This document shows, in pieces, positions 2,249 through 17,820 of a DNA stretch of 64,000 nt. The stretch comes from Desulfatiglandales bacterium (GTDB lineage: Bacteria; Desulfobacterota; DSM-4660; Desulfatiglandales; Desulfatiglandaceae), in assembly GCA_963662465.1 (NCBI GenBank), contig OY759599.1:3040001-3104000 (forward strand), written 5' to 3'. The notes beneath the pieces were generated by a model. The model did not search any database and was not told where the DNA came from. It saw nothing but the letters and a program-made list of their open reading frames with translations. The position numbers were made by a program, and so were the translations under genes. Within the stretch, counting starts at the first letter, position 1, and every line of letters begins with the position of its first letter.

Positions 2249-4343
2249 ATGTTGATGGAACCATCGTATATTTACCACTCGAATCTCTTCAATTCCACCT
2301 ATTTTGAACGTGTTCTTTCCGACGAGGCCTTTCCCCGTAAGCGGGAACTGCCGTCTGAGGCGCAGAAACGTTTGGAAAAACTGATCGGACTCTGGCTTTC
2401 CGTTCGCCATGAGTTTGTAAAAGATTTACCGGAAAGCAAACATAAACCTATCCCATGTGTTGGATTGCCGCCTTCTCTCGAAATGAAGTCAAAAGCCATT
2501 GAAGACAGCGTTGAAAACGAATTCTTACTGCCGCTTTACGAAAAAGTGTTGGGCTTCGCATGTAAGAAACAACAGTCCATGGAGTTGACGGGGCTTTCAA
2601 AAGAAATAAAAAATCGAACCAAAAAACCTGATTTTGTCATTTTTTCAGATAAAATGAAAAAAAAGGCTGCCTTGGACCTTGTTGGTAAAACAAAAAAAGC
2701 GGTTTGTGCGCTTTCATTTTGATATACATTCCAGCTTCAAATTTACCGCCTTGACGTTTTCCCGCGAAACACCCGAAGAAGGGCACTCGTTCCCCGCTGC
2801 CTTCATGCTGCGGGACACCCAGGTGCTGGAAGGGAAAATGCAGGAGCGGGTGCTGTATTTGAGCCGGGACTTCATTACGGCCATCAGCCCCGAAAGTCTG
2901 GCCCTGATCGACAACCGTTCCGACATGGAAGTGCGGTTGATTGAACGGCTTCATCAGAGCTTCCCAGCCCTCGGCAGTGCGGATAGCGGCTGGAAGGTAA
3001 CCTATCGCACGGATTTGCATATGACCAATGACGCCTGCTTGTTCAAAACACGTGGGTGGATGGCAGCCAGGGGATTTACCCGCTTCCGGCCGGAAAAAAA
3101 TGAGGAGGGGCAGTGGGTTCGAAAAAAGCATCCGGATTCCAAAATTGTTGTTTTGCCGGATGATTTGCCCCAGGGCGGTGAGTACTGGGTATCCGCCGAT
3201 GAAAACTGGTATCGGACACGCGGGTATGCGGAACGGCAACAGCATTTCAACGGCAAGGAACGGACGGTTTTCTACCACCCGGATGACAATGCAAAAAAAG
3301 ACGGAAAGGGCAATGACCCCAACCGAATTCTCCCCGGCGAAATCTATTCTCCGCTTTATGAGGGCCGGATGGTTCACATCTTTGATCATTCCCAGAAAGG
3401 CTATGTTTCAGGAGAAGGCCGAAAGGCCATTTGGCAAGAGCAGGATATGGAGCGGAAGGTGATTACCCCCCGCGTTTTTGTCAGCAAGGTTGATGCTGAA
3501 AAGGAGGCGGATGATCGGATAGGCTTTTGTGACGTGACCGGAGCAACGAATGAGAGAAGTATTCTTTCAACAATAATAAGCGTTTATGTCCTTTGTGGGA
3601 ATACGGTTGCCACTTTGGAAGGGCTGACAGCAAAAGAAAATCTGATGCTTTTATCTATTTTTGCTTCTTTCTGTGCGGACTATTTAATCCGCCAACGCGT
3701 AAGCCTCCATTTGAACTGGACGTATGTTTCTAACCTTGTGGTTCCAAACTGCAGAGAGACAGCCGAGGACACAATAGGCGATTTAGCCCGTAAAGCCGCA
3801 ACCCTGAGCTGCACCACCCCGGAACTAGCGGAAGCATGGAATGCCGTGTTCCCTGAAGATCCCTGGACGTATGAGAGCGCGGAGCGGGATTTATGGAAAC
3901 GGGCCGAACTCCGGGCTGAGATGGATGCCATGGTGGCTGAGTTGTATGGTTTGTCCGTGGAGGAATACGCCATGGTCCTGACCGGTTTCCCCCTTCTGGA
4001 CCGGGGTCAGCCCGCCCTGCCCGGAGATGCCTTTCTGACGGAGGGGGATGAAAAATCGAAAAAAGGGGTGGAAGGGGAAAATTGGCTGGAAAGGGAGTGG
4101 GGCATTTTTGAAATCAAGCCGAGAAGCTTCATCACCCGTGATTTTGCCCTGCTCACCTACATGAAGCGAAAAGCCTATCCACTGCCGCAGGATCTGAGCG
4201 CATGGTTCCGGGATAAGGCAGGCTTGAATCCCGAGGGCCCACTTTCTCGCTTTACGATCGGGACTGTCGTGGATCTGGAGGAGCGGGTTGCACTCGCCGA
4301 AGAAAAAGGGGCGATTCCGTATGTGCCCTCCACCCGTGGTTAG
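2249..4343 (+). pseudogene. Type IIG (Eco57I-like) restriction-modification gene relic with a large internal deletion
   Basis: N-terminal piece 2249..2722 (E..VENEFLLPL..VLGF, KKPDFVIF) abuts out of frame a C-terminal piece 2679..4343 (FDIHSSFKF, PLYEGRMVHIFDH, DVTGATNERS, RAELRAEMDAMVAELYGL). No methyltransferase motif I or NPPY/W is present. Confidence 0.7.
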
Positions 4344-4369
4344 AAAGGAGCAGGATATTGGATTGGGAA

Positions 4370-6167
4370 CAGCAATTCCCGCTTAGATTCTAAAGGCGCT
4401 AGGACAGTACCTTTTGGCATTTCCTTTTCGTAAAGCTTTACGTTGAATGAATAGCCTGAAAAGGCTTTTTTCTCCAATTTTTAAAATAAAACAGGAATTT
4501 TTTTGGCAATTCTCAGAAAAAGCTGGACTTTCAGATCAACTTGGCCGATGATTACTGCCTATGGGAATCAGAAGCCAAAAAGGAAGAAAAGAGAGAGGCA
4601 AGATTGGAGTTCGCAAGCATCTTAATGCAGATGCAATTTTCAAGCGTCTGCATAAAGATTTTTCTGAAGTCTCTGACTGCCGTGAGGATCCCGATATTAC
4701 TATTGCGGATGCCTTGATGTCCGGGTTTGCAATGTTTTCGCTCAAGGAGCCATCGTTGCTTGCCTTTGATGAAAGAAGAAAAACCGATAGTAATCTTGGG
4801 AACATATACCATATTGGAAAGATCCCATGTGACAGTACGATGCGCACCATTCTTGATGAAGTGCTCGCAGAAGAACTTCGGAAACCGTATAGGAATATCT
4901 TCTGGGAACTGCAAAGGGGAAAGGTGCTTGAACGTATGGTATTTTTCGAAGGTTGTTATCTTCTATCTTTGGATGGAACGGGTTTCTTCTCATCGAAGAA
5001 ACTTTCCTCTGATAGTTGTTTGGTAAAAGTATCGAAAAAAACCGGCGAAAAAACCTATTATCAGCAGATGTTGGGGGCAGCAATTGTCCATCCGGATTTC
5101 AAAGAGGTCATTCCGCTTGCTCCGGAATTCATAGTCAAGCAGGATGGCCAAAGCAAGAACGACTGTGAGCGTAATGCCGCGAAACGTTTCTTGCAAAAGC
5201 TAAAAGAGGAGCATCCCCATCTGCCTATCATTATAACAGAGGACGCGTTAAGTTCGAATGCACCCCACATTGAAGAAATACAAAAGCAAAATTTTCATTA
5301 TATTCTGGGAGTTAAAAAAGGAGATCACCATTTCTTGTTTAATCACGTCGAACAAGCGCGGATAAATGGTGACGTCACTGAATTCGAATTGGTCGATAAA
5401 GAGGATCCGGAAAAAATACATCGTTTCCGATTTATTAACCAGGTACCTCTCAATGCCTCTAACAAGAATATGCTGGTTAACTTTCTGGAATATTGGGAAA
5501 TTACACCGAAAAAAACAAAACATTTTAGTTGGGTGACAGATTTTTTAATAGGAAAGGACAATGCATACCAGCTAATGCGAGGCGGCCGTGCGAGATGGAA
5601 GATCGAAAATGAAACCTTCAATACTCTTAAGAACCAAGGATATCATTTTGAACACAACTACGGGCTCGGCAAGAAGAATCTGAGTGTTGTTTTTGCGATG
5701 CTCATGATGCTGGCATTCTTGGTGGATCAAACTCAACAGCTTTGTTGCCCTCTATTTATAGCCGCATGGCATAAACTCGGCTCAAAAAGGGAATTGTGGG
5801 AACGGATGAGAGCTTTGTTTAGAGATTTTGAATTCAAATCGATGAGGATGCTCTATGAAGCCCTCTATTATGGCGTAAAGTTTCAAGCGCCAGTTATTCT
5901 ATATAACAGTGGTTAAATTTGTCATGCCCAAGTTCGCATACAAAAATGCTCTCATTAATAAAAAACTGGAGATTCCGGAAATGGATATCTCTGCCCTAAC
6001 TCGTGCTTTTATGCTCTTACTCTTGTCAAAGAAGCTCAACCTGCAAGAAATCGAGGGAGGTAATAGTGGATTTAATACAATTTTTCTGAAAAGGATCTGA
6101 TCTCAGGGTTTGTTTTTGAAATATGTTTTTCAAACTCTGTGAGTAAATTCTTGACCGGGAATTGCTG
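4370..6167 (+). mobile_element. Complete insertion sequence, ISNCY/ISDol1-like, 1798 bp
   Basis: 12-bp terminal inverted repeats CAGCAATTCCCG (4370-4381) and CGGGAATTGCTG (6156-6167); perfect 9-bp target duplication GATTGGGAA at 4361-4369 and 6168-6176. Confidence 0.93.
4561..5916 (+). CDS. DDE transposase (IS4-like fold, ISNCY/ISDol1 group)
   Basis: 451 aa; LDGTG, QDGQSKNDCE, TEDAL, GRARWKIENETFNTLKNQGYHFEHNYG motifs; lies between the inverted repeats. Confidence 0.92.
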   Translation: MGIRSQKGRKERGKIGVRKHLNADAIFKRLHKDFSEVSDCREDPDITIADALMSGFAMFSLKEPSLLAFDERRKTDSNLGNIYHIGKIPCDSTMRTILDEVLAEELRKPYRNIFWELQRGKVLERMVFFEGCYLLSLDGTGFFSSKKLSSDSCLVKVSKKTGEKTYYQQMLGAAIVHPDFKEVIPLAPEFIVKQDGQSKNDCERNAAKRFLQKLKEEHPHLPIIITEDALSSNAPHIEEIQKQNFHYILGVKKGDHHFLFNHVEQARINGDVTEFELVDKEDPEKIHRFRFINQVPLNASNKNMLVNFLEYWEITPKKTKHFSWVTDFLIGKDNAYQLMRGGRARWKIENETFNTLKNQGYHFEHNYGLGKKNLSVVFAMLMMLAFLVDQTQQLCCPLFIAAWHKLGSKRELWERMRALFRDFEFKSMRMLYEALYYGVKFQAPVILYNSG

Positions 6168-7067: not shown

Positions 7068-7982
7068 ATGGACCTTGATTATGATGAAATGGAAAAAAGC
7101 GGGATTAAAGAGGAAGATTTTGAAATGGCTGTTCGAAAAGGCGAGACAGATTTCATCGCCTATGCGGTTAATATGTTTAACTGGGAGCCTGGCATATTCC
7201 CGAATGGCGGTCACCCGCTTTCCGTCGCGTGCGAGTCTGGATTTCTGGATGTGGCAAAGGAGCTGGTTGTATGGGGGGCCGACATTCACGACAAGGGTGA
7301 AGAACTGCCGACCCCGTTGATTCTCGCTGCCCAGAACGGCCATTCTCATATTGTTTCCTGGCTGGTGGAAAACGGAGTGGATCTCAACTATCACCATGAA
7401 GAGATCGACGCCAATGGAGACTGGGAATGGAGCGGATCCGCACTGGGAGAAGCCATCAGGTATGAACATCTGGATATTGCCGAATACCTGATGGACAAGG
7501 GTGCGGATATATCCGACAGTATTTTAGCGACATTTGAAGACCCATATGGCTTTCCGGGCCATATGATTTGCAAGACTTCATATCCCATTGTCGAATTTGT
7601 GAAGTGTGAGAATTACTATCTGTTTAATAAGGCTGTCAAACTGAATGCTCTGGAAAAGTTGCCGCAAGAGGATCAGAAATCTTTATTGGAAATATGCATC
7701 CGCAAAGGAAGGCTCGATGAAGTCCGCTTGATAGCCGGAAAGCTGCCAAAGCTTTTAAATCAGTGCATGGAAACAGAAGACCAAAATTTTCTGTTTCCTC
7801 TGGAACTTGCCGCGATCAATAAAAACAGCGAAATGCTCGAATTGCTTCTCCAAGAAGGCGCAAGTCTGGGAATACGTAATGAGGACGGAACTTTCATATA
7901 CGTGTCGATAGGCGAAATTTGGCCTGAAAAGGCTGTAGAAATTCTTTCAGCCCTTGCAAAAGAAAATACGGCTGGGTCTTGA
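7068..7982 (+). CDS. Ankyrin-repeat protein
   Basis: Repeats HPLSVACESG, TPLILAAQNG, SALGEAIRYE, FPLELAAINK, each followed by LV/LL..GA/VD; RBS GAGG upstream. Confidence 0.9.
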   Translation: MDLDYDEMEKSGIKEEDFEMAVRKGETDFIAYAVNMFNWEPGIFPNGGHPLSVACESGFLDVAKELVVWGADIHDKGEELPTPLILAAQNGHSHIVSWLVENGVDLNYHHEEIDANGDWEWSGSALGEAIRYEHLDIAEYLMDKGADISDSILATFEDPYGFPGHMICKTSYPIVEFVKCENYYLFNKAVKLNALEKLPQEDQKSLLEICIRKGRLDEVRLIAGKLPKLLNQCMETEDQNFLFPLELAAINKNSEMLELLLQEGASLGIRNEDGTFIYVSIGEIWPEKAVEILSALAKENTAGS

Positions 7983-8214
7983 TAAACACGTTTATGTAAA
8001 ACCGTTTATGCGTTTATGAATTCATGGGCAAAACCGTACCGTGCAAAATAAGAACGAAAAAAGCCAACAGCAAAATCAATGTCCTACCTTGTTTCCACGC
8101 TGCTGTATGAGAGGCCCCTTACTCCCCTAGTTTCCAGAGCATCAACAGGCCCATTCTTTCATGACCAGGGCTGCTGTGATTCCGTGCCTGGCCTCCATTA
8201 GTTGGGCGTTCTCC

Positions 8215-8243
8215 TTGACTTTGAAAAGCAATGGCTTTATAGT
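8215..8243 (+). promoter_or_regulatory. Near-consensus sigma70 promoter
   Basis: TTGACT (8215-8220), 17-bp spacer, TATAGT (8238-8243); no credible protein gene follows on this strand. Confidence 0.7.
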
Positions 8244-8249
8244 TCTCAC

Positions 8250-8560
8250 CTCAAGGGGATATCCGCTGCGTAGGGGGGCCACCCTGGCCTGAACAGTCGC
8301 GGGTAGCTGGTCCGTGAGCCGTATCAGCCGCTGTCCTCTGCCTCTTCCGGGAAAAGGAGGCCGGGACTAAGCGGTAATAAGCCTATGGCCCGCCGGACAG
8401 CAGCACCGGCGGGGTGAAGGACTTATGTCGCACGAACCGGAAAGCCTGCTCACTTTTCCCCATCCTGGGCTTTGCTCTTGTAGTTCGACGTCTGCATCGG
8501 GGGGCCCACCCTGTCAGACAGGTGCAGATGGGCCGGATTGTGGGCGATCCGGCCATTTTA
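8250..8560 (+). ncRNA. Candidate structured non-coding RNA of unknown family (~310 nt)
   Basis: GC-rich, dense hairpins (8271-8286, 8328-8374, 8389-8413, 8491-8528), bounded by a promoter and a terminator-like hairpin; no convincing ORF. Confidence 0.55.
8531..8559 (+). terminator. Intrinsic terminator-like hairpin
   Basis: GGCCGGAT-N8-ATCCGGCC followed by ATTTT. Confidence 0.6.
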
Positions 8561-8624
8561 ATACTATTTCTCCTCCCAGTTTCAACGCCCTCTCCAAGTG
8601 ATCATTACTCCATCTCCATTCGCT

Positions 8625-8963
8625 CTATTCCCATTCTTTCTCATAAAGGTGCACATGCCTTCTAATCTCAAGGTCGGTTGGTTTGCCGTGGATTTCAAGG
8701 AAATTGACAAGAAACCGCCTGACCCTGGTCTGATAAAGTTGGTCAGCTCCTTTGTCTTCTGAAAGGACCCTAAGGAGTGATTCGAGTAACATGGGTGCGA
8801 GATGGGGCTCCTGTTTTTCTTCATGAATGCCGCAGCATTTCACTTGATCGTAGAGCTCATCGCTTGTCCAATGAGCGTGAAACATTTCTTCGGAGCCAAA
8901 ATGATCGAGAGCTTTCTCCCTGGCTCCTGCTTCATATGTGTTTATGGAGCGGGAATAACCCAC
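8625..8963 (-). CDS. Hypothetical protein (112 aa)
   Basis: GTG start with GAGGG RBS, 6 bp downstream of the preceding minus-strand gene; no family recognised. Confidence 0.55.
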   Translation of the reverse strand: MGYSRSINTYEAGAREKALDHFGSEEMFHAHWTSDELYDQVKCCGIHEEKQEPHLAPMLLESLLRVLSEDKGADQLYQTRVRRFLVNFLEIHGKPTDLEIRRHVHLYEKEWE

Positions 8964-8969
8964 CTGCCC

Positions 8970-9377
8970 TCAGTTTTTTTTGTTAGGCCATCGAAACAAC
9001 CACCACATTTCCTTGTTATCAATTGAGGCATCATGGGAACTTGCATCCGCTACGGTTAATTCCTTGAATCGTTGATCCGCCGCCAAAATTCGTTCCTTAA
9101 ACGGTTCGATTTCCGCTTCGCTCGCATATTGCATCACATCATAAAGTGTTTCTCGTATTGAAAGGTCATTAAGATATTCTTCACTTGTATCATCGAAAGG
9201 TATCCATTCAATAACATCTTCCCAGTCCGCAACATACGCCTCAATCCCGTTTCGCTCGATATCCCGAATTTCCGAATCCTTGCATCTTGTCAACAACAAA
9301 TGCTCTATTAACGGTGAGACGGTTCCGTTCTTTGCAAGATACCGCTTAAGCCGCATTTTATCCCTATACTTAGTCAT
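8970..9377 (-). CDS. Hypothetical acidic protein; may carry an in-frame N-terminal membrane segment if started further upstream
   Basis: ORF 8970..9713; ATG 9377 has a GAGGT RBS; the upstream in-frame stretch VFLGIVIAIIITAIFAFACWII is hydrophobic. Confidence 0.6.
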   Translation of the reverse strand: MTKYRDKMRLKRYLAKNGTVSPLIEHLLLTRCKDSEIRDIERNGIEAYVADWEDVIEWIPFDDTSEEYLNDLSIRETLYDVMQYASEAEIEPFKERILAADQRFKELTVADASSHDASIDNKEMWWLFRWPNKKN

Positions 9378-13606: not shown

Positions 13607-13776
13607 TTGATCTCGAATTTCTGGTGCAAGATAAGCCTGATCCGGCAAAAAGCAACGGGTTATTTTCCCTTTCCAGGATTTTACCATGATGAATCGGAAC
13701 TTTAGGTTCGCCTAGCTGCAATACGGGAACCGGCGGTTCTCTCTCTCGGGCGTTATGATAAATAAAACCAGTTTAA

Positions 13777-13811
13777 TATCAACATGTTACGATTATGGCA
13801 CGACAAATGCA
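13777..13811 (+). promoter_or_regulatory. sigma54 (-24/-12) promoter with adjacent IHF site
   Basis: TGGCAC-GACAA-ATGCA at 13796-13811; TATCAACATGTTA at 13777-13789 matches the IHF consensus WATCAANNNNTTR. Confidence 0.7.
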
Positions 13812-13940
13812 GTGTCATACGGGAGAGGGGAATGCAACCCCCATAAAAAACAGGACGAAAAGGCGCCGGGTATTCCGCGTTTGCTTCGGAAGCGGAGTGC
13901 CCTATTATATTTTATGAGAAGCAATGGGAGGCAAGAAATA

Positions 13941-15296
13941 ATGGAAGAGGAGATTCTCACCGCGGATGATAGTGAACCCCCCAATATCAGGGCGGCATTT
14001 GGGGCTTGTTTAGCGGCGAAAGCGTGTTTACCCGCAAAGCGACACCGGGCCAAAAAAGCCAAGGTCACATACCTGAAAAAGGTGGCGGAAGTATCCAGGT
14101 TCCATGTAAGTCCTGCTGCCTGCGATTTTCAAAAAAAGTATTTTCCTAAAATCAGCCCGGCCGAATGGGACGACTGGCACTGGCAACTGAAAAACCGAAT
14201 CACCAGCCTTTCCCAACTGGCCCCCATGATCCATCTTTCCCATGAGGAAAACGAGGCCATCAACCATTGCAGCAGGGGGCTCCCCCTTGCCGTTACGCCC
14301 TACTATGCAAGCCTCCTGGAACAGGACAATCCTTTTCAACCCTTGCGCCGTGCAGTGATCCCCGTTACCGCCGAGCAGCAATCCTTCCCCGGAGAAGCAT
14401 CAGACCCCCTGGGCGAAGAAAACGACAGTCCGGTTCCCGGTCTAATCCACCGTTATCCCGACAGGGTGTTGTTCCTGGTCACCGATTTTTGCTCCACCTA
14501 CTGCCGTTACTGCACCCGTTCACGGATGGTGGGTCAAAAAGGCGGCGGGACCTTTCATAAGGCTCGCCTTGAAAAGGCGCTGGCATACATCCGGGAACAC
14601 CCGGAAATCAGGGATGTTCTCATTTCGGGCGGGGATCCCTTGACCTTGTCCGATACAAAACTGGAGTGGCTCCTTTCCCGGTTGAAACAGATTTCCCATG
14701 TGGAATTCGTGCGCATCGGCACCAAGGTCCCCGTGGTGCTCCCTCAGCGCATTACCCCGGCACTCACCCGAATGTTGAAACGCTATCATCCCCTGTGGAT
14801 CAGCATCCATTTCACCCATCCCGATGAACTCACCCCTGAAACGGTGCAGGCCTGCGGGCGTCTTGCGGATGCGGGCATTCCACTGGGAAGCCAGACGGTT
14901 CTCCTGAAAGGCATCAATGACCAGGTGGACACCATGAAGCGCCTGGTACAGGGTCTTCTGAAGGCGCGGGTAAGGCCGTACTACCTGTATCAGTGCGATC
15001 CGATCACAGGCTCGGCCCACTTCCGCACCACCGTGGAAAAGGGTCTGGAGATCATCAGGGGGTTGCGGGGGCATACAACGGGATATGCCGTTCCCAACTA
15101 TGTGATTGACGCCCCCGGGGGAGGCGGAAAGATTCCGTTGCTCCCGGAATATTTCATGGGCCGGGACGGGGATGATCTCGTGCTGAAAAACTATCAGGGC
15201 AGGCTTTATCGTTATCCGGATCCCGTGGATCAATGCATGGGAGACACTCCCGCCCCCACCCCTTGTCTTAACGAACAGGAGGGACCTGCATGCTGA
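13941..15296 (+). CDS. kamA: KamA-family radical SAM/PLP lysine 2,3-aminomutase
   Basis: HRYPDRVL, CSTYCRYC (CxxxCxxC), SGGDPL, QTVLLKGIND, PYYLYQCD, IDAPGGGGKIP; start ATG 13941 after GGGAGG. Confidence 0.92.
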   Translation: MEEEILTADDSEPPNIRAAFGACLAAKACLPAKRHRAKKAKVTYLKKVAEVSRFHVSPAACDFQKKYFPKISPAEWDDWHWQLKNRITSLSQLAPMIHLSHEENEAINHCSRGLPLAVTPYYASLLEQDNPFQPLRRAVIPVTAEQQSFPGEASDPLGEENDSPVPGLIHRYPDRVLFLVTDFCSTYCRYCTRSRMVGQKGGGTFHKARLEKALAYIREHPEIRDVLISGGDPLTLSDTKLEWLLSRLKQISHVEFVRIGTKVPVVLPQRITPALTRMLKRYHPLWISIHFTHPDELTPETVQACGRLADAGIPLGSQTVLLKGINDQVDTMKRLVQGLLKARVRPYYLYQCDPITGSAHFRTTVEKGLEIIRGLRGHTTGYAVPNYVIDAPGGGGKIPLLPEYFMGRDGDDLVLKNYQGRLYRYPDPVDQCMGDTPAPTPCLNEQEGPAC

Positions 15297-16291
15297 TCGG
15301 GCTGACCTATGACCTTCGAGACGACTACCTCAATGCCGGTTTCAGCAAAGAGGATACAGCGGAATTTGACAGTGAAGCGGTGATTCTGGGCATTGAAGGG
15401 GCACTGGGGGCATTGGGTTACCGCACGGAGCGGATCGGAAACATCCGGAGTCTGATCCGGAAACTGGATCGGGGCGACACCTGGGACCTGGTTTTCAACA
15501 TTGCCGAGGGCCTCAGGGGATTCGGCAGAGAAGCGCAGGTCCCCGCTCTCCTGGATGCATACGACATTCCCTATACCTTTTCCGATCCCCTGGTGCTGAG
15601 TCTGACGCTGCATAAGGGGATGACCAAGCGGGTCATCCGCGACCTGGGGATTCCCACACCGGACTTTCGCGTCATAGAAACCGGTCGGGATGCGGAAAAA
15701 ATCGACCTTCCCCTTCCCCTCTTTGCCAAACCCGTGGCCGAGGGAACCGGCAAGGGCATCGATGCCGCATCGAAGATCTCCCAAAGGGATCATATTGTCC
15801 CGGTGTGCCGTGGGCTTTTGGGCCGGTTCAACCAGCCGGTTCTGGTGGAAACCTTTCTTCCGGGAAGGGAATTTACCGTGGGCATTGTGGGAACAGGTGA
15901 AAACGCCGTCGTCATCGGCGTGATGGAGGTATTGCTCCGTCAAGAGGCGGAGCAGGGCGCCTATTCCTTCTTGAACAAGGAACGATTCGAGGATCTGGTG
16001 GAATACCGTCTCGTGGAAGATGAGGAATCAAAAAGGGCCGAAGAAGTGGCTTTGGCGTCCTGGCGAGGTCTTGGATGCCGGGATGCGGGACGGGTGGACC
16101 TTCGAAGCGACGGGAACGCCGTCCCCAACTTCATCGAAGTAAATCCCCTGGCCGGGCTCCATCCCGTGCATTCGGATCTTCCCATCCTCTCTTATCTGGC
16201 CGGGGTAACTTATCAGGAACTCATTGAAATGATAATGGAATCTGTCGAACGAAGGCTTCGAAACCAGGAATCGCCGAAAACGGAGGCCTGA
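15290..16291 (+). CDS. ATP-grasp ligase, D-Ala-D-Ala ligase-like (copy 1)
   Basis: FNIAEG, KP..EGTGKGI, ETFLPGREF, RVDLR, IEVNPLAG; lacks the Ddl N-terminal GGxSxE motif. Confidence 0.88.
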   Translation: MLIGLTYDLRDDYLNAGFSKEDTAEFDSEAVILGIEGALGALGYRTERIGNIRSLIRKLDRGDTWDLVFNIAEGLRGFGREAQVPALLDAYDIPYTFSDPLVLSLTLHKGMTKRVIRDLGIPTPDFRVIETGRDAEKIDLPLPLFAKPVAEGTGKGIDAASKISQRDHIVPVCRGLLGRFNQPVLVETFLPGREFTVGIVGTGENAVVIGVMEVLLRQEAEQGAYSFLNKERFEDLVEYRLVEDEESKRAEEVALASWRGLGCRDAGRVDLRSDGNAVPNFIEVNPLAGLHPVHSDLPILSYLAGVTYQELIEMIMESVERRLRNQESPKTEA

Positions 16292-16296
16292 TCCCC

Positions 16297-17307
16297 ATGA
16301 AAGCGGTTATCGTTTATGATAAAATCGCCGAAAAGATGACCGATCCGGACCACAAGGATGTGCTCGAACAGGTCCGGGCGGTCGGCGAGGTTCTGGGCGC
16401 CATGGGATATACGCCCCTCGAACTGGGGATCACCATGGACCTGGCTAACCTGGAGGAGAAACTGAACGCTTTTTGCCCCGACGTTGTGTTCAACCTGGTG
16501 GAGTCTCTATCAGGCGCCGGCCGGTTGATCCACCTGGCGCCCGCCGTCCTGGAGTTTCTTGGGTTCCCTTATACGGGCGCCCCCGCGGATGCGTTGTATC
16601 AAACCTCTAATAAGGCCGTTTCAAAGCGGCTGCTGCAAGGATCGGATCTCCCCACCCCGGAGGCATTTTTTCAGGAAGGCGGTCTAAACCATTTAATGCC
16701 CCGGAAGGGAACCCACTACATCATCAAATCCGTCTGGGAACATGCCTCCATCGGGATCGAGGATGATTCGGTGGTGGTGGTTCAGGATAAAGCGCAACTG
16801 GTCCAGGCCATGGCATCCCGAAGAAAGGCCCTCGGAGGGAGCTGCTTTGCGGAGAGATATATTGAAGGGCGGGAATTCAATCTTTCCCTGTTGACGTCCC
16901 CTGAAGGCCCTCTGCTGCTCCCCCCCGCGGAAATCCGGTTTGACCGGTTCCCTCCCGGAAAACGAAAAATCGTGGGGTACACGGCCAAGTGGGATACGGC
17001 TTCGTTTGAATACCATCATACCCCGCGCAGTTTCCAATTTCCCCCGGAAGATGCGCCCCTGCTGGACCGCATGGCGGATTTGGCCAAAAGGTGCTGGCGT
17101 CTTTTCGGCATCCGGGGTTACGCAAGGGTGGATTTCAGGGTTGACCATGACAATAACCCGTGGATACTGGAGGTCAATGCAAACCCCTGCCTGTCACCGG
17201 ACGCGGGATTCGCGGCCGCCGCCGCCCGTTCGGGCCTTCCCTTTGGGGAAGTGGTCGAAAGAATCGTAAACGAAACGCTCAACCGGGAACATTTGCAATC
17301 CCTCTGA
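16297..17307 (+). CDS. ATP-grasp ligase, D-Ala-D-Ala ligase-like (copy 2)
   Basis: FNLVES, KS..EHASIGI, ERYIEGREF, YARVDFR, LEVNANP. Confidence 0.88.
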   Translation: MKAVIVYDKIAEKMTDPDHKDVLEQVRAVGEVLGAMGYTPLELGITMDLANLEEKLNAFCPDVVFNLVESLSGAGRLIHLAPAVLEFLGFPYTGAPADALYQTSNKAVSKRLLQGSDLPTPEAFFQEGGLNHLMPRKGTHYIIKSVWEHASIGIEDDSVVVVQDKAQLVQAMASRRKALGGSCFAERYIEGREFNLSLLTSPEGPLLLPPAEIRFDRFPPGKRKIVGYTAKWDTASFEYHHTPRSFQFPPEDAPLLDRMADLAKRCWRLFGIRGYARVDFRVDHDNNPWILEVNANPCLSPDAGFAAAAARSGLPFGEVVERIVNETLNREHLQSL

Positions 17308-17322
17308 ACAAAGATCGCAACC

Positions 17323-17820
17323 ATGCATCCAAAACCCATGCGCTTTAGAGAAGCGCCCGTTCAGGGCGACAGGAAAAGGGTTCGAGAGATCATTGCCTCC
17401 TCCGGATTTTTTTCCCACGAAGAGATCGAGGTAGCCGACGAGCTGGTGCAGGAGCGACTTGGCAAAGGGATTTCAAGCGGATACCTGTTTCTGTTTGCGG
17501 AAGTGGAAGGCCGCGTCGTGGGATATGCCTGTTACGGTCCCATTCCCTGCACCCTTCAAAGCTACGACCTTTACTGGATTGCCGTGGAGGAGACCCTGCG
17601 GGGGGCGGGGGTCGGCCGGGAGTTGCTTCGAAGATCCGAACAGGCCATGGCACGAGCCGGGGGCACGCGCATCTACGTTGAAACCAGCTCCCGTGAACAA
17701 TACGGATCCACCAGGGCCTTCTACGACGCCTGTGGTTATGGGGAAGCGGCCGTGCTGGAAGATTTCTACTCCCCCGGGGATCACAAAGTGATTTATCTGA
17801 AGGTGCTGCCGGGAAAATAA
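17323..17820 (+). CDS. GNAT-family N-acetyltransferase
   Basis: LYWIAV...LRGAGVG acetyl-CoA motif, YVETSS, RAFY..CGY. Confidence 0.9.
   Translation: MHPKPMRFREAPVQGDRKRVREIIASSGFFSHEEIEVADELVQERLGKGISSGYLFLFAEVEGRVVGYACYGPIPCTLQSYDLYWIAVEETLRGAGVGRELLRRSEQAMARAGGTRIYVETSSREQYGSTRAFYDACGYGEAAVLEDFYSPGDHKVIYLKVLPGK

Follow-up and report, generated by a model that had tools for sequence, protein, structure and literature searches.

Tandem array of three pseudoknotted RNA modules in a Desulfatiglandales genome, with relatives beside phage MuF-PBECR2 nuclease genes: candidate orphan RNA antitoxins

A 64,000-nt stretch of a Desulfatiglandales bacterium genome (GCA_963662465.1, contig OY759599.1, positions 3,040,001 to 3,104,000; "the window", to which coordinates refer) contains a conserved unit at 8212..8558 on the plus strand, in which a promoter is followed by an RNA built of three modules from two structured-RNA families. 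The source genome (8.16 Mb, a single contig) carries the stretch as a single copy. Relatives of both families occur in Mu-like phages, behind genes for MuF minor head proteins that end in a PBECR2 domain. Sequence comparison leads us to favor the view that the unit is a set of orphan RNA antitoxins, probably collected as immunity against RNases that phages deliver with their virions. The three-module anatomy and the nuclease linkage are established by comparison among homologues; expression of the array, toxicity, binding and protection are steps that we infer, and we hold them to be somewhat more probable than not.

The sigma70-type promoter (TTGACT-17-TATAGT, 8215..8243, plus strand, as are all parts of the unit) has a predicted start near 8250, and the three-module RNA is probably transcribed independently from it. 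Module A (8254..8339) is a family-1 three-way junction, supported by a phage-sequence profile, model R2 and covariation. It comprises helices P1 (8254-8261/8332-8339), P2a (8262-8269/8297-8304), P2c (8274-8277/8282-8285) and P3 (8306-8314/8320-8328), and a pseudoknot with one bulge between loop 8278-8281 and loop 8315-8319. A linker (8340..8348) leads to module C (8349..8461), a family-2 RNA supported by a profile from five phage sequences and by covariation, with P1 (8349-8360/8449-8461), P2 (8361-8364/8437-8440), an apical hairpin (8389-8396/8406-8413) and a pseudoknot of 8399-8403 with 8446-8450. After a second linker (8462..8488) comes module B (8489..8559, or to 8554 without the T run), a family-1 RNA without P1, which is supported by the phage-sequence profile and model R2. 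Its helices are P2a (8489-8498/8521-8530), P2c (8500-8503/8509-8512) and P3 (8531-8539/8546-8554, then the T run), and its pseudoknot joins loop 8504-8508 to 8541-8545.

As a single sequence the locus is at chance level: promoters number 1 against 0.8 expected, terminators 2 against 1.9 expected, and the folding z is -1.17. The RNA gene is taken as real because homologues support features that a single sequence alone cannot. The first-pass annotation, made from the letters alone, had described an unrecognised RNA of about 310 nt with twin hairpins, and many of its readings hold. The letters of the promoter, of hairpins A (8271-8286) and B (8498-8513) and of the reverse-complementary GGGCC (8276-8280) and GGCCC (8503-8507) were confirmed, although the promoter by itself is no better than chance. 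A helix proposed at 8389-8413 is the apical hairpin of module C. The non-coding, structured character of the RNA is borne out by helices and pseudoknots that covary among homologues in both families, and a suspected link to mobile or defense systems by relatives that lie beside phage MuF nuclease genes. The terminator-like hairpin exists as a stem with a T run (8531-8554); its identity, however, is P3 of copy B, which may double as a transcription terminator. The absence of a credible ORF was overstated in that the 3' half shares sequence with an 83-codon GTG frame (8414-8665); conservation does not extend to this frame, since the match to the second copy of the array ends at 8558.

As the annotation had supposed, the RNA lies outside Rfam: no Rfam 15 covariance model reached gathering level in window positions 7800-9000 (best E 2.2), and the relatives' RNAs (4, 20, 10 and 1 further loci) also gave no match. 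Group I and II intron cores, SRP Alu, twister, HDV-like, pistol and omega RNAs were rejected for want of an Rfam score or fitting features, a retron or DRT RNA because no RT is present among the ORFs scanned, and a riboswitch because there is no consistent downstream gene. An IS or MITE end was rejected as well, given the single copy and conserved borders that coincide with promoter and terminator.

Family 1 is an 85-90-nt three-way junction. A pattern for either hairpin gave 12 metagenome matches, five of them real, and these show that the homologous unit is a short module of which the window holds copies A and B. The refined pattern returned nine viral matches and 13 genome matches; the five real ones among the latter are in bins titled Syntrophus, Syntrophaceae, Syntrophobacterales, Solibacteraceae and Methanolinea. 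On this comparison, the twin hairpins represent a single module that is present twice, as homologous copies. A profile of phage family-1 sequences, the membership of which was picked by a model that included the window copies, found module A at E 1e-10 and module B at E 5e-7 in the whole 8.16-Mb genome. Model R2 scores them at 70 and 45 bits. In an alignment of 25 distinct sequences, pairing holds in 90.8% of cells and two-sided changes occur in 23 of the 26 pairs, which exceeds every one of 500 shuffles and every slid control; having been fitted to the model, this alignment leans towards structure. Members of the same set differ widely in the unpaired core. In 29 of 36 family-1 RNAs the fold of the promoter strand is more stable than that of the reverse complement, and a similar promoter (relaxed pattern) precedes 27 of the 36.

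The inner-hairpin loop is complementary to the P3 loop in all 35 parsed sequences of 36, with one bulge allowed, compared to a shuffled mean of 25.2 and maximum of 31 (20,000 shuffles). Of the distinct types of loop pair, all ten fit, where shuffling gives 3.3 on average. The loops are constrained by the patterns used for parsing, and the relatives are not independent; L214 was mis-parsed, yet its loops are complementary either way. In the covarying register the stem moves one step inward (e.g., GGAG/CTCC in L228 and L277), which gives loops GCCA (8278-8281) in A and GCCCA (8504-8508) in B. As the complementary partner lies in the same module, the twin hairpins pair within each module and the supposed terminator is P3 of B. 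Kissing-loop pseudoknots are thus present, but inside each module. One 310-nt RNA closed by a long-range kiss between A and B, as first proposed, is consequently extremely improbable: GGGCC and GGCCC are complementary, an alternative stem register is possible in both copies and both ends are invariant in the second copy of the array, yet the intra-module pairing holds in 35 of 35 cases and most sequences are single copies without a twin. The A-B complementarity arises because both copies share a near-palindromic GGCC. A search of IMG/VR for the twin hairpins at 198-228-nt spacing gave one match, a tandem repeat, so no second A...B element was found there.

Family 2 is an RNA of about 110 nt that lies behind six other MuF genes. 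A profile from five phage sequences alone matches the window at 8357-8464 (E 3e-12), the only significant match in the 8.16-Mb genome. In a plain MAFFT alignment of eight sequences, 92.3% of cells pair and 20 of 34 pairs show changes on both sides. The 5-bp apical-loop pseudoknot pairs in 95% of cells with 10 two-sided changes, with two of five measures failing to beat shuffles. The comparison exposes at least two well-supported structured-RNA families absent from Rfam. Instead of a single fold of about 310 nt, it holds a tandem array of three modules. A helix formerly drawn at 8328-8374 spans two different modules, and its 5' strand carries five substitutions and one deletion in the second copy, three of them pair-breaking as judged by hand. 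The modular fold of the whole array is calculated at -116 kcal/mol versus -136 for a cross-module minimum-energy fold, with pseudoknots not counted.

A second copy of the array occurs on a contig (X1/X2) from two runs of one sample, labelled as probably DNA; four runs were aligned on 7700-9100. Identity is 90-95% across exactly 8212-8558, from promoter to terminator, the upstream flank is different and the downstream flank has a 364-nt skip. From these exact borders we conclude that the unit runs from promoter to terminator. The contig lists 21 substitutions and two deletions, with no listed substitution in 8250-8309 or 8490-8558. Three substitutions are adjacent in the A-C linker and three lie in the C-B linker. 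By hand assignment of the 19 substitutions within the RNA, 10 are in loops or linkers, five keep or improve a pair and four break one; three compatible substitutions make P1 of module C an unbroken 12-bp helix. A 3-nt deletion removes an insert that phage family-2 members lack. The last base of the -10 hexamer is altered, which weakens the -10 box. We count this sequence pattern as suggestive of selection on the array, against which stand the four pair-breaking changes of 19 and the weaker -10 box. This is the one independent copy of the three-module array that was found.

These data bear on the possibility that the array is debris, left by phage fragments and without function. The surrounding region is variable and IS-containing, the array is present once, model R2 has no match in 150 genomes of the class, module B has no P1 and cross-module misfolding is possible. 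Debris is nonetheless very unlikely, given that three modules are joined without toxin or gpG coding sequence and that the second genome keeps exactly the interval from promoter to terminator, with changes mostly in linkers.

The unit lies between an ankyrin-repeat gene (7068..7982, plus strand; Pfam), which is upstream context outside the unit and absent from the X1 contig, and a convergent 112-codon ORF (8625..8963, minus strand) with no known family and no PBECR match, which is mostly absent from X1. A segment of the window around the start of this ORF (8923-8992) is also present in the X1 contig. The array thus holds its place beside a minus-strand gene run, though most of the ORF is gone in X1. 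Atlas gave no usable match for two ORFs downstream of the array. Further upstream, window positions 2249-5916 carry a type IIG restriction-modification-like ORF (2679-4343, plus strand; PADLOC) and a DDE transposase (4561-5916, plus strand; Pfam), and the region 2679..5916 is variable and defense-island-like. Downstream, at 13755-17820, a radical-SAM lysine-aminomutase-like gene and three further ORFs form an ordinary-looking, operon-like run. Two CRISPR-like arrays of the genome are far from the locus.

Other searches yielded little. By BLAST-type methods, the whole stretch has no homologue in 60 relatives and none in cultured phages; the matches in 208 genomes of the class are short and due to chance, and those in plasmids are chance matches too. 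A core pattern selected 117 viral stretches, all rejected as chance coding matches, and two further patterns gave chance matches only (8 and 2). Model R1 matched 2 of 150 other genomes of the phylum, model R2 none of 150 genomes of the class and model R3 none of 150 of the phylum. The sequencing runs listed as carrying the stretch include no RNA dataset.

Viral family-1 RNAs lie between a Phage_Mu_F gene that ends in PBECR2 and a gpG (Phage_tail_S) gene. The RNAs are on the strand opposite MuF, with their 3' end at the MuF stop codon. The linked proteins match Phage_Mu_F and PBECR2 (PF18810), with no ToxN-like or Abi_2 family listed. The gap to gpG is typically ~110-135 nt and is filled by the convergent RNA. 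No small immunity ORF directly follows MuF in family-1 loci, and a conserved frame in the gap is excluded because the alignment has single-base indels. In a family-1 pattern scan that was blind to the toxin, nine of nine viral matches were beside it. A corresponding family-2 scan gave 12 pattern matches, of which seven were profile-confirmed, and all seven lie beside the family-2 nuclease clade.

We also fetched MuF loci by protein, taking the best 80 of 383; seven are cut off or broken before the gap, leaving 73. Within this best-80 set, 34 of the 73 have a PBECR2 of the main cluster or the sister pair L253/L254, and R1 matches 33 of these 34, in each case once, at the MuF stop and on the minus strand. 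In the remaining locus, L231, model R2 gives a weak family-1 match at that position (E 0.014). Six of the 73 pair a second PBECR2 clade with family 2, seven pair a third clade with a loop-pairing family E RNA (recognised by eye and by the loop test), and six pair a tail of no listed family with a family D RNA (by eye). R1 has no match (0/20) behind the 16 short MuFs without nuclease and the four MuFs with unrelated tails of the same sample. A convergent promoter pattern is present in 39 of 53 RNA-bearing gaps versus 2 of 20 others, again among the best 80 of 383 loci. The MuFs with unrelated tails are L262, L269, L270 and L271; three of the four are closely followed by protein ORFs, with no RNA gene. 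These tails carry what we take to be an HExxH-like motif. At L179:244-1494, a PBECR2-type tail with RNA ends an ORF whose start resembles a Mu protease gene rather than MuF; this ORF may be a fusion or an assembly artefact.

The convergent arrangement could indicate a cis-antisense or convergent silencer, type I-like, of muF and gpG in the lysogen, with the window copies as captured remnants. The 3' end of the RNA overlaps the last MuF codons, and in many loci the promoter lies over the gpG ribosome-binding region. Such a silencer would need no tertiary fold, yet helices and pseudoknots covary, and the fold switches with the nuclease clade. Moreover, the orphan copies have no target gene in their genome, and antisense would be powerless against an injected protein. 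We regard it as quite unlikely. In keeping with this, the window unit is a single copy with no MuF or PBECR2 match and the phage RNA overlaps the last codons by its 3' end only, whereas a type I antisense RNA has long complementarity to a toxin mRNA of its own genome.

RNA type requires three changes on a tree of 37 nuclease tails, which is the minimum; on a quickly built tree of 56 MuF head domains it requires 17, where 6 would be the minimum. Near-duplicate loci were left out. L214 and L227 have near-identical head domains with different tails and RNAs. From these counts, tail and RNA move together. Such co-transfer is expected from adjacency alone, and this counts against the antitoxin reading.

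Several more structured-RNA folds, judged by eye, each match a protein clade. A loop-loop complement of at least 4 bp occurs in 13 of 17 further PBECR2 gaps (8 with p <=0.04) versus 0 of 12 controls; the other four of the 17 have none. Family D passed in one of four cases, with a test span too short for that family. By eye, family D is a fourth convergent structured RNA, just past the MuF stop in L227, L236, L239, L244, L259 and L267. The MuF tail at these loci is ~145 aa with no significant Pfam or NCBIfam match, and its predicted fold (pLDDT 42) is unusable. Further two-hairpin, complementary-loop RNAs follow the MuF stop behind distant PBECR2 domains in L238, L249, L257, L265, L286, L287, L289, L297, L299-L301 and L303, a set that includes the cultured phages RcapMu, RcWaterboi and RR1-B. 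R2 matches none of these RNAs, and Rfam none of those that were scanned against it. In the source genome, there is no match to the profiles of family D, of family E or of the L287/L289 type.

Could the modules be self-cleaving ribozymes that process phage transcripts or the array? Small pseudoknotted RNAs near phage structural genes resemble ribozyme-associated motifs in their context, and family 1 has what we take to be a superficial resemblance to a permuted twister. The idea is highly improbable, as no Rfam ribozyme model scores, the unpaired core varies widely and an autonomous ribozyme would not switch family with the neighboring nuclease clade.

PBECR2 tails have an invariant Lys, a conserved His/Arg and mostly Thr/Ser. 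A structural model of the tail (pLDDT 91.6) gives weak matches to RNase toxins (best Z 3.0-3.8), and Foldseek gave no match to it at E 0.001. The tail is a predicted RNase domain, and the weak fold matches count against the antitoxin reading. MuF-PBECR proteins have been predicted to be virion-packaged, injected RNases, and inactive PBECR domains have been proposed to bind RNA, in one study (PMC5512222). We contrasted active-site states in eight records taken from 125 phage-collection matches and partly read by eye. Where the Lys/basic motif is conserved (five records, RcapMu and RR1-B among them), a gap of 92-117 nt holds two hairpins with complementary loops; three records with a decayed motif (JBD25, L298 and L302) have no such gap or RNA, so that the contrast consists of three cases. 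In phage JBD25 (L296:742-2557), the decayed-motif tail is separated by a 1-nt gap from gpG, with no RNA and no immunity ORF.

An activating or packaged cofactor would explain linkage of this kind roughly as well as an inhibitor would. The RNA might be a positive partner of the nuclease (a cofactor, a guide, or cargo packaged in the head as a ribonucleoprotein), and host copies might be decoys or passengers. This explanation would account equally for the linkage, the clade-matching and the loss with nuclease decay; conserved unpaired bases suggest protein recognition, and RNA binding has been proposed for inactive PBECR domains (PMC5512222). We consider it unlikely, as the alignments show no variable guide-like segment, a sigma70-type promoter opposing the late operon would suit lysogen protection over assembly, and three orphan modules in a genome without a nuclease match are hard to explain.

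The source genome has no MuF match and, in a search that was positive in G256, no PBECR2 match. Free copies also occur elsewhere. At L167:2990-5360, next to a CRISPR array, a convergent RNA-like element follows each of two solo PBECR2 tails, and family 1 is present as one free copy and one partial copy. Where the first of these tails begins lies a degenerate repeat that belongs to a different CRISPR type. In L170, a tandem family-1 pair is present with no MuF gene among the listed ORFs; a second promoter and more complementary-loop hairpin modules, seen by eye and without an Rfam match, precede the pair at 430-900, which is possibly another mixed orphan RNA array. In G224, a promoter and a complete family-1 RNA (L277, G224:C1:1107933-1108020, minus strand) lie within a CRISPR array, as a 167-nt unit compared to the 61-nt array period, in a genome with no PBECR2 match.

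We return to the antitoxin reading. By analogy with type III antitoxins, each folded RNA would bind and block its cognate PBECR2 domain, and the convergent promoter would supply the RNA in the lysogen, independent of late transcription. The source genome, with no nuclease match, would have placed two variants of family 1 and a single family-2 RNA under the control of one promoter, and the array would neutralise nucleases of two clades carried by infecting phages. Direct inhibition is the simplest reading because an RNA in the immunity slot tracks the nuclease clade, is lost where the toxin or its conserved motif is lost, and stays as an orphan. Counted against it are the cross-module fold, ~20 kcal/mol more stable than the modular one, module B without P1, the weak match at L231, the four of 17 further gaps with no loop-loop complement, the three cases of the decayed-motif contrast and the single independent copy of the array. 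More tentatively, Mu-like phages may in general carry PBECR2 RNases with pseudoknotted-RNA immunity, one fold per clade, and bacteria may join captured RNAs or store them in CRISPR arrays (as in G224); we place this a little short of an even chance.

If the antitoxin reading is correct, a large group of predicted virion nucleases would gain the immunity partner that it has lacked, and the function of these proteins would become testable: a toxin tail, for example from the cultured phage RcapMu, could be cloned under the protection of its RNA. RNA antitoxins would be extended from intracellular addiction modules to polymorphic, particle-delivered toxins, and a host would be seen to assemble RNA modules from different phages into one immunity transcript, an acquired, RNA-only defense against injected phage enzymes. 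Even with another function, the families offer a natural series for the study of RNA-protein co-evolution. No account of RNAs associated with MuF or PBECR turned up in the literature covered, which takes in a minority of subscription journals.

In type III toxin-antitoxin systems (toxIN, cptIN, tenpIN) the antitoxin RNA is pseudoknotted, and its tandem repeats precede the toxin gene in the same orientation and are co-transcribed with it. The present RNAs are similar in that a structured RNA is proposed to bind an RNase toxin, motifs can be repeated in one transcript, the setting is phage or prophage, and loop-loop pairing covaries in families 1 and 2. Unlike in those systems, the predicted toxin is neither ToxN-like nor Abi_2/HEPN; it is a domain of BECR fold that forms part of a virion protein. 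In the MuF loci (the best 80 of 383), each of the 33 R1 matches stands alone, downstream of the toxin gene and on the strand opposite to it. A separate promoter, the lack of an Rfam match, folds that track toxin clades and toxin-free mixed arrays are further differences. Orphan immunity cassettes are a feature of CDI, Rhs and T6SS loci, and the array resembles them in that putative immunity elements have been brought together at a variable site, apart from the toxin; here, however, these elements are modules of a single RNA, and they would act against an attacking phage particle. GOLLD, ROOL and raiA, as portrayed in passages of PMC5737381, are likewise independently transcribed, structured and phage-linked, but the array has no Rfam match and its length comes from joined 70-115-nt modules.

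A functional parallel is AbiF, which is directly inhibited by the folded RNA RCd22, as we propose here for a structured RNA and an RNase toxin in a phage setting; RCd22 has two motifs (PMC12373285). For PBECR domains, the likeness lies in the PF18810 match, the His/Arg at the helix position and the C-terminal Ser/Thr; the description of these domains in passages of PMC5512222 names no associated non-coding RNA or inhibitor. The phage relatives, MuF loci with a variable C-terminal tail, fit the MuF polymorphic toxin arrangement. In passages of PMC5576092, 89.4% of MuF toxin genes are followed by a small putative immunity ORF, and MuF-RelA_SpoT is an example of a MuF toxin with protein immunity (passages of PMC11806420); the MuF toxin passages of both papers mention no RNA immunity. 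As in the polymorphic toxins outlined in PMC5576092, the carrier is the same, the C-terminal tail is swappable, the element directly behind the toxin gene swaps with the tail, and orphan tail cassettes occur (L167). Here, however, the element is a structured RNA on the opposite strand, where that system has an ORF on the same strand. An RNA-filled immunity slot would, by analogy, join two known kinds of system, the type III antitoxin and the MuF polymorphic toxin.
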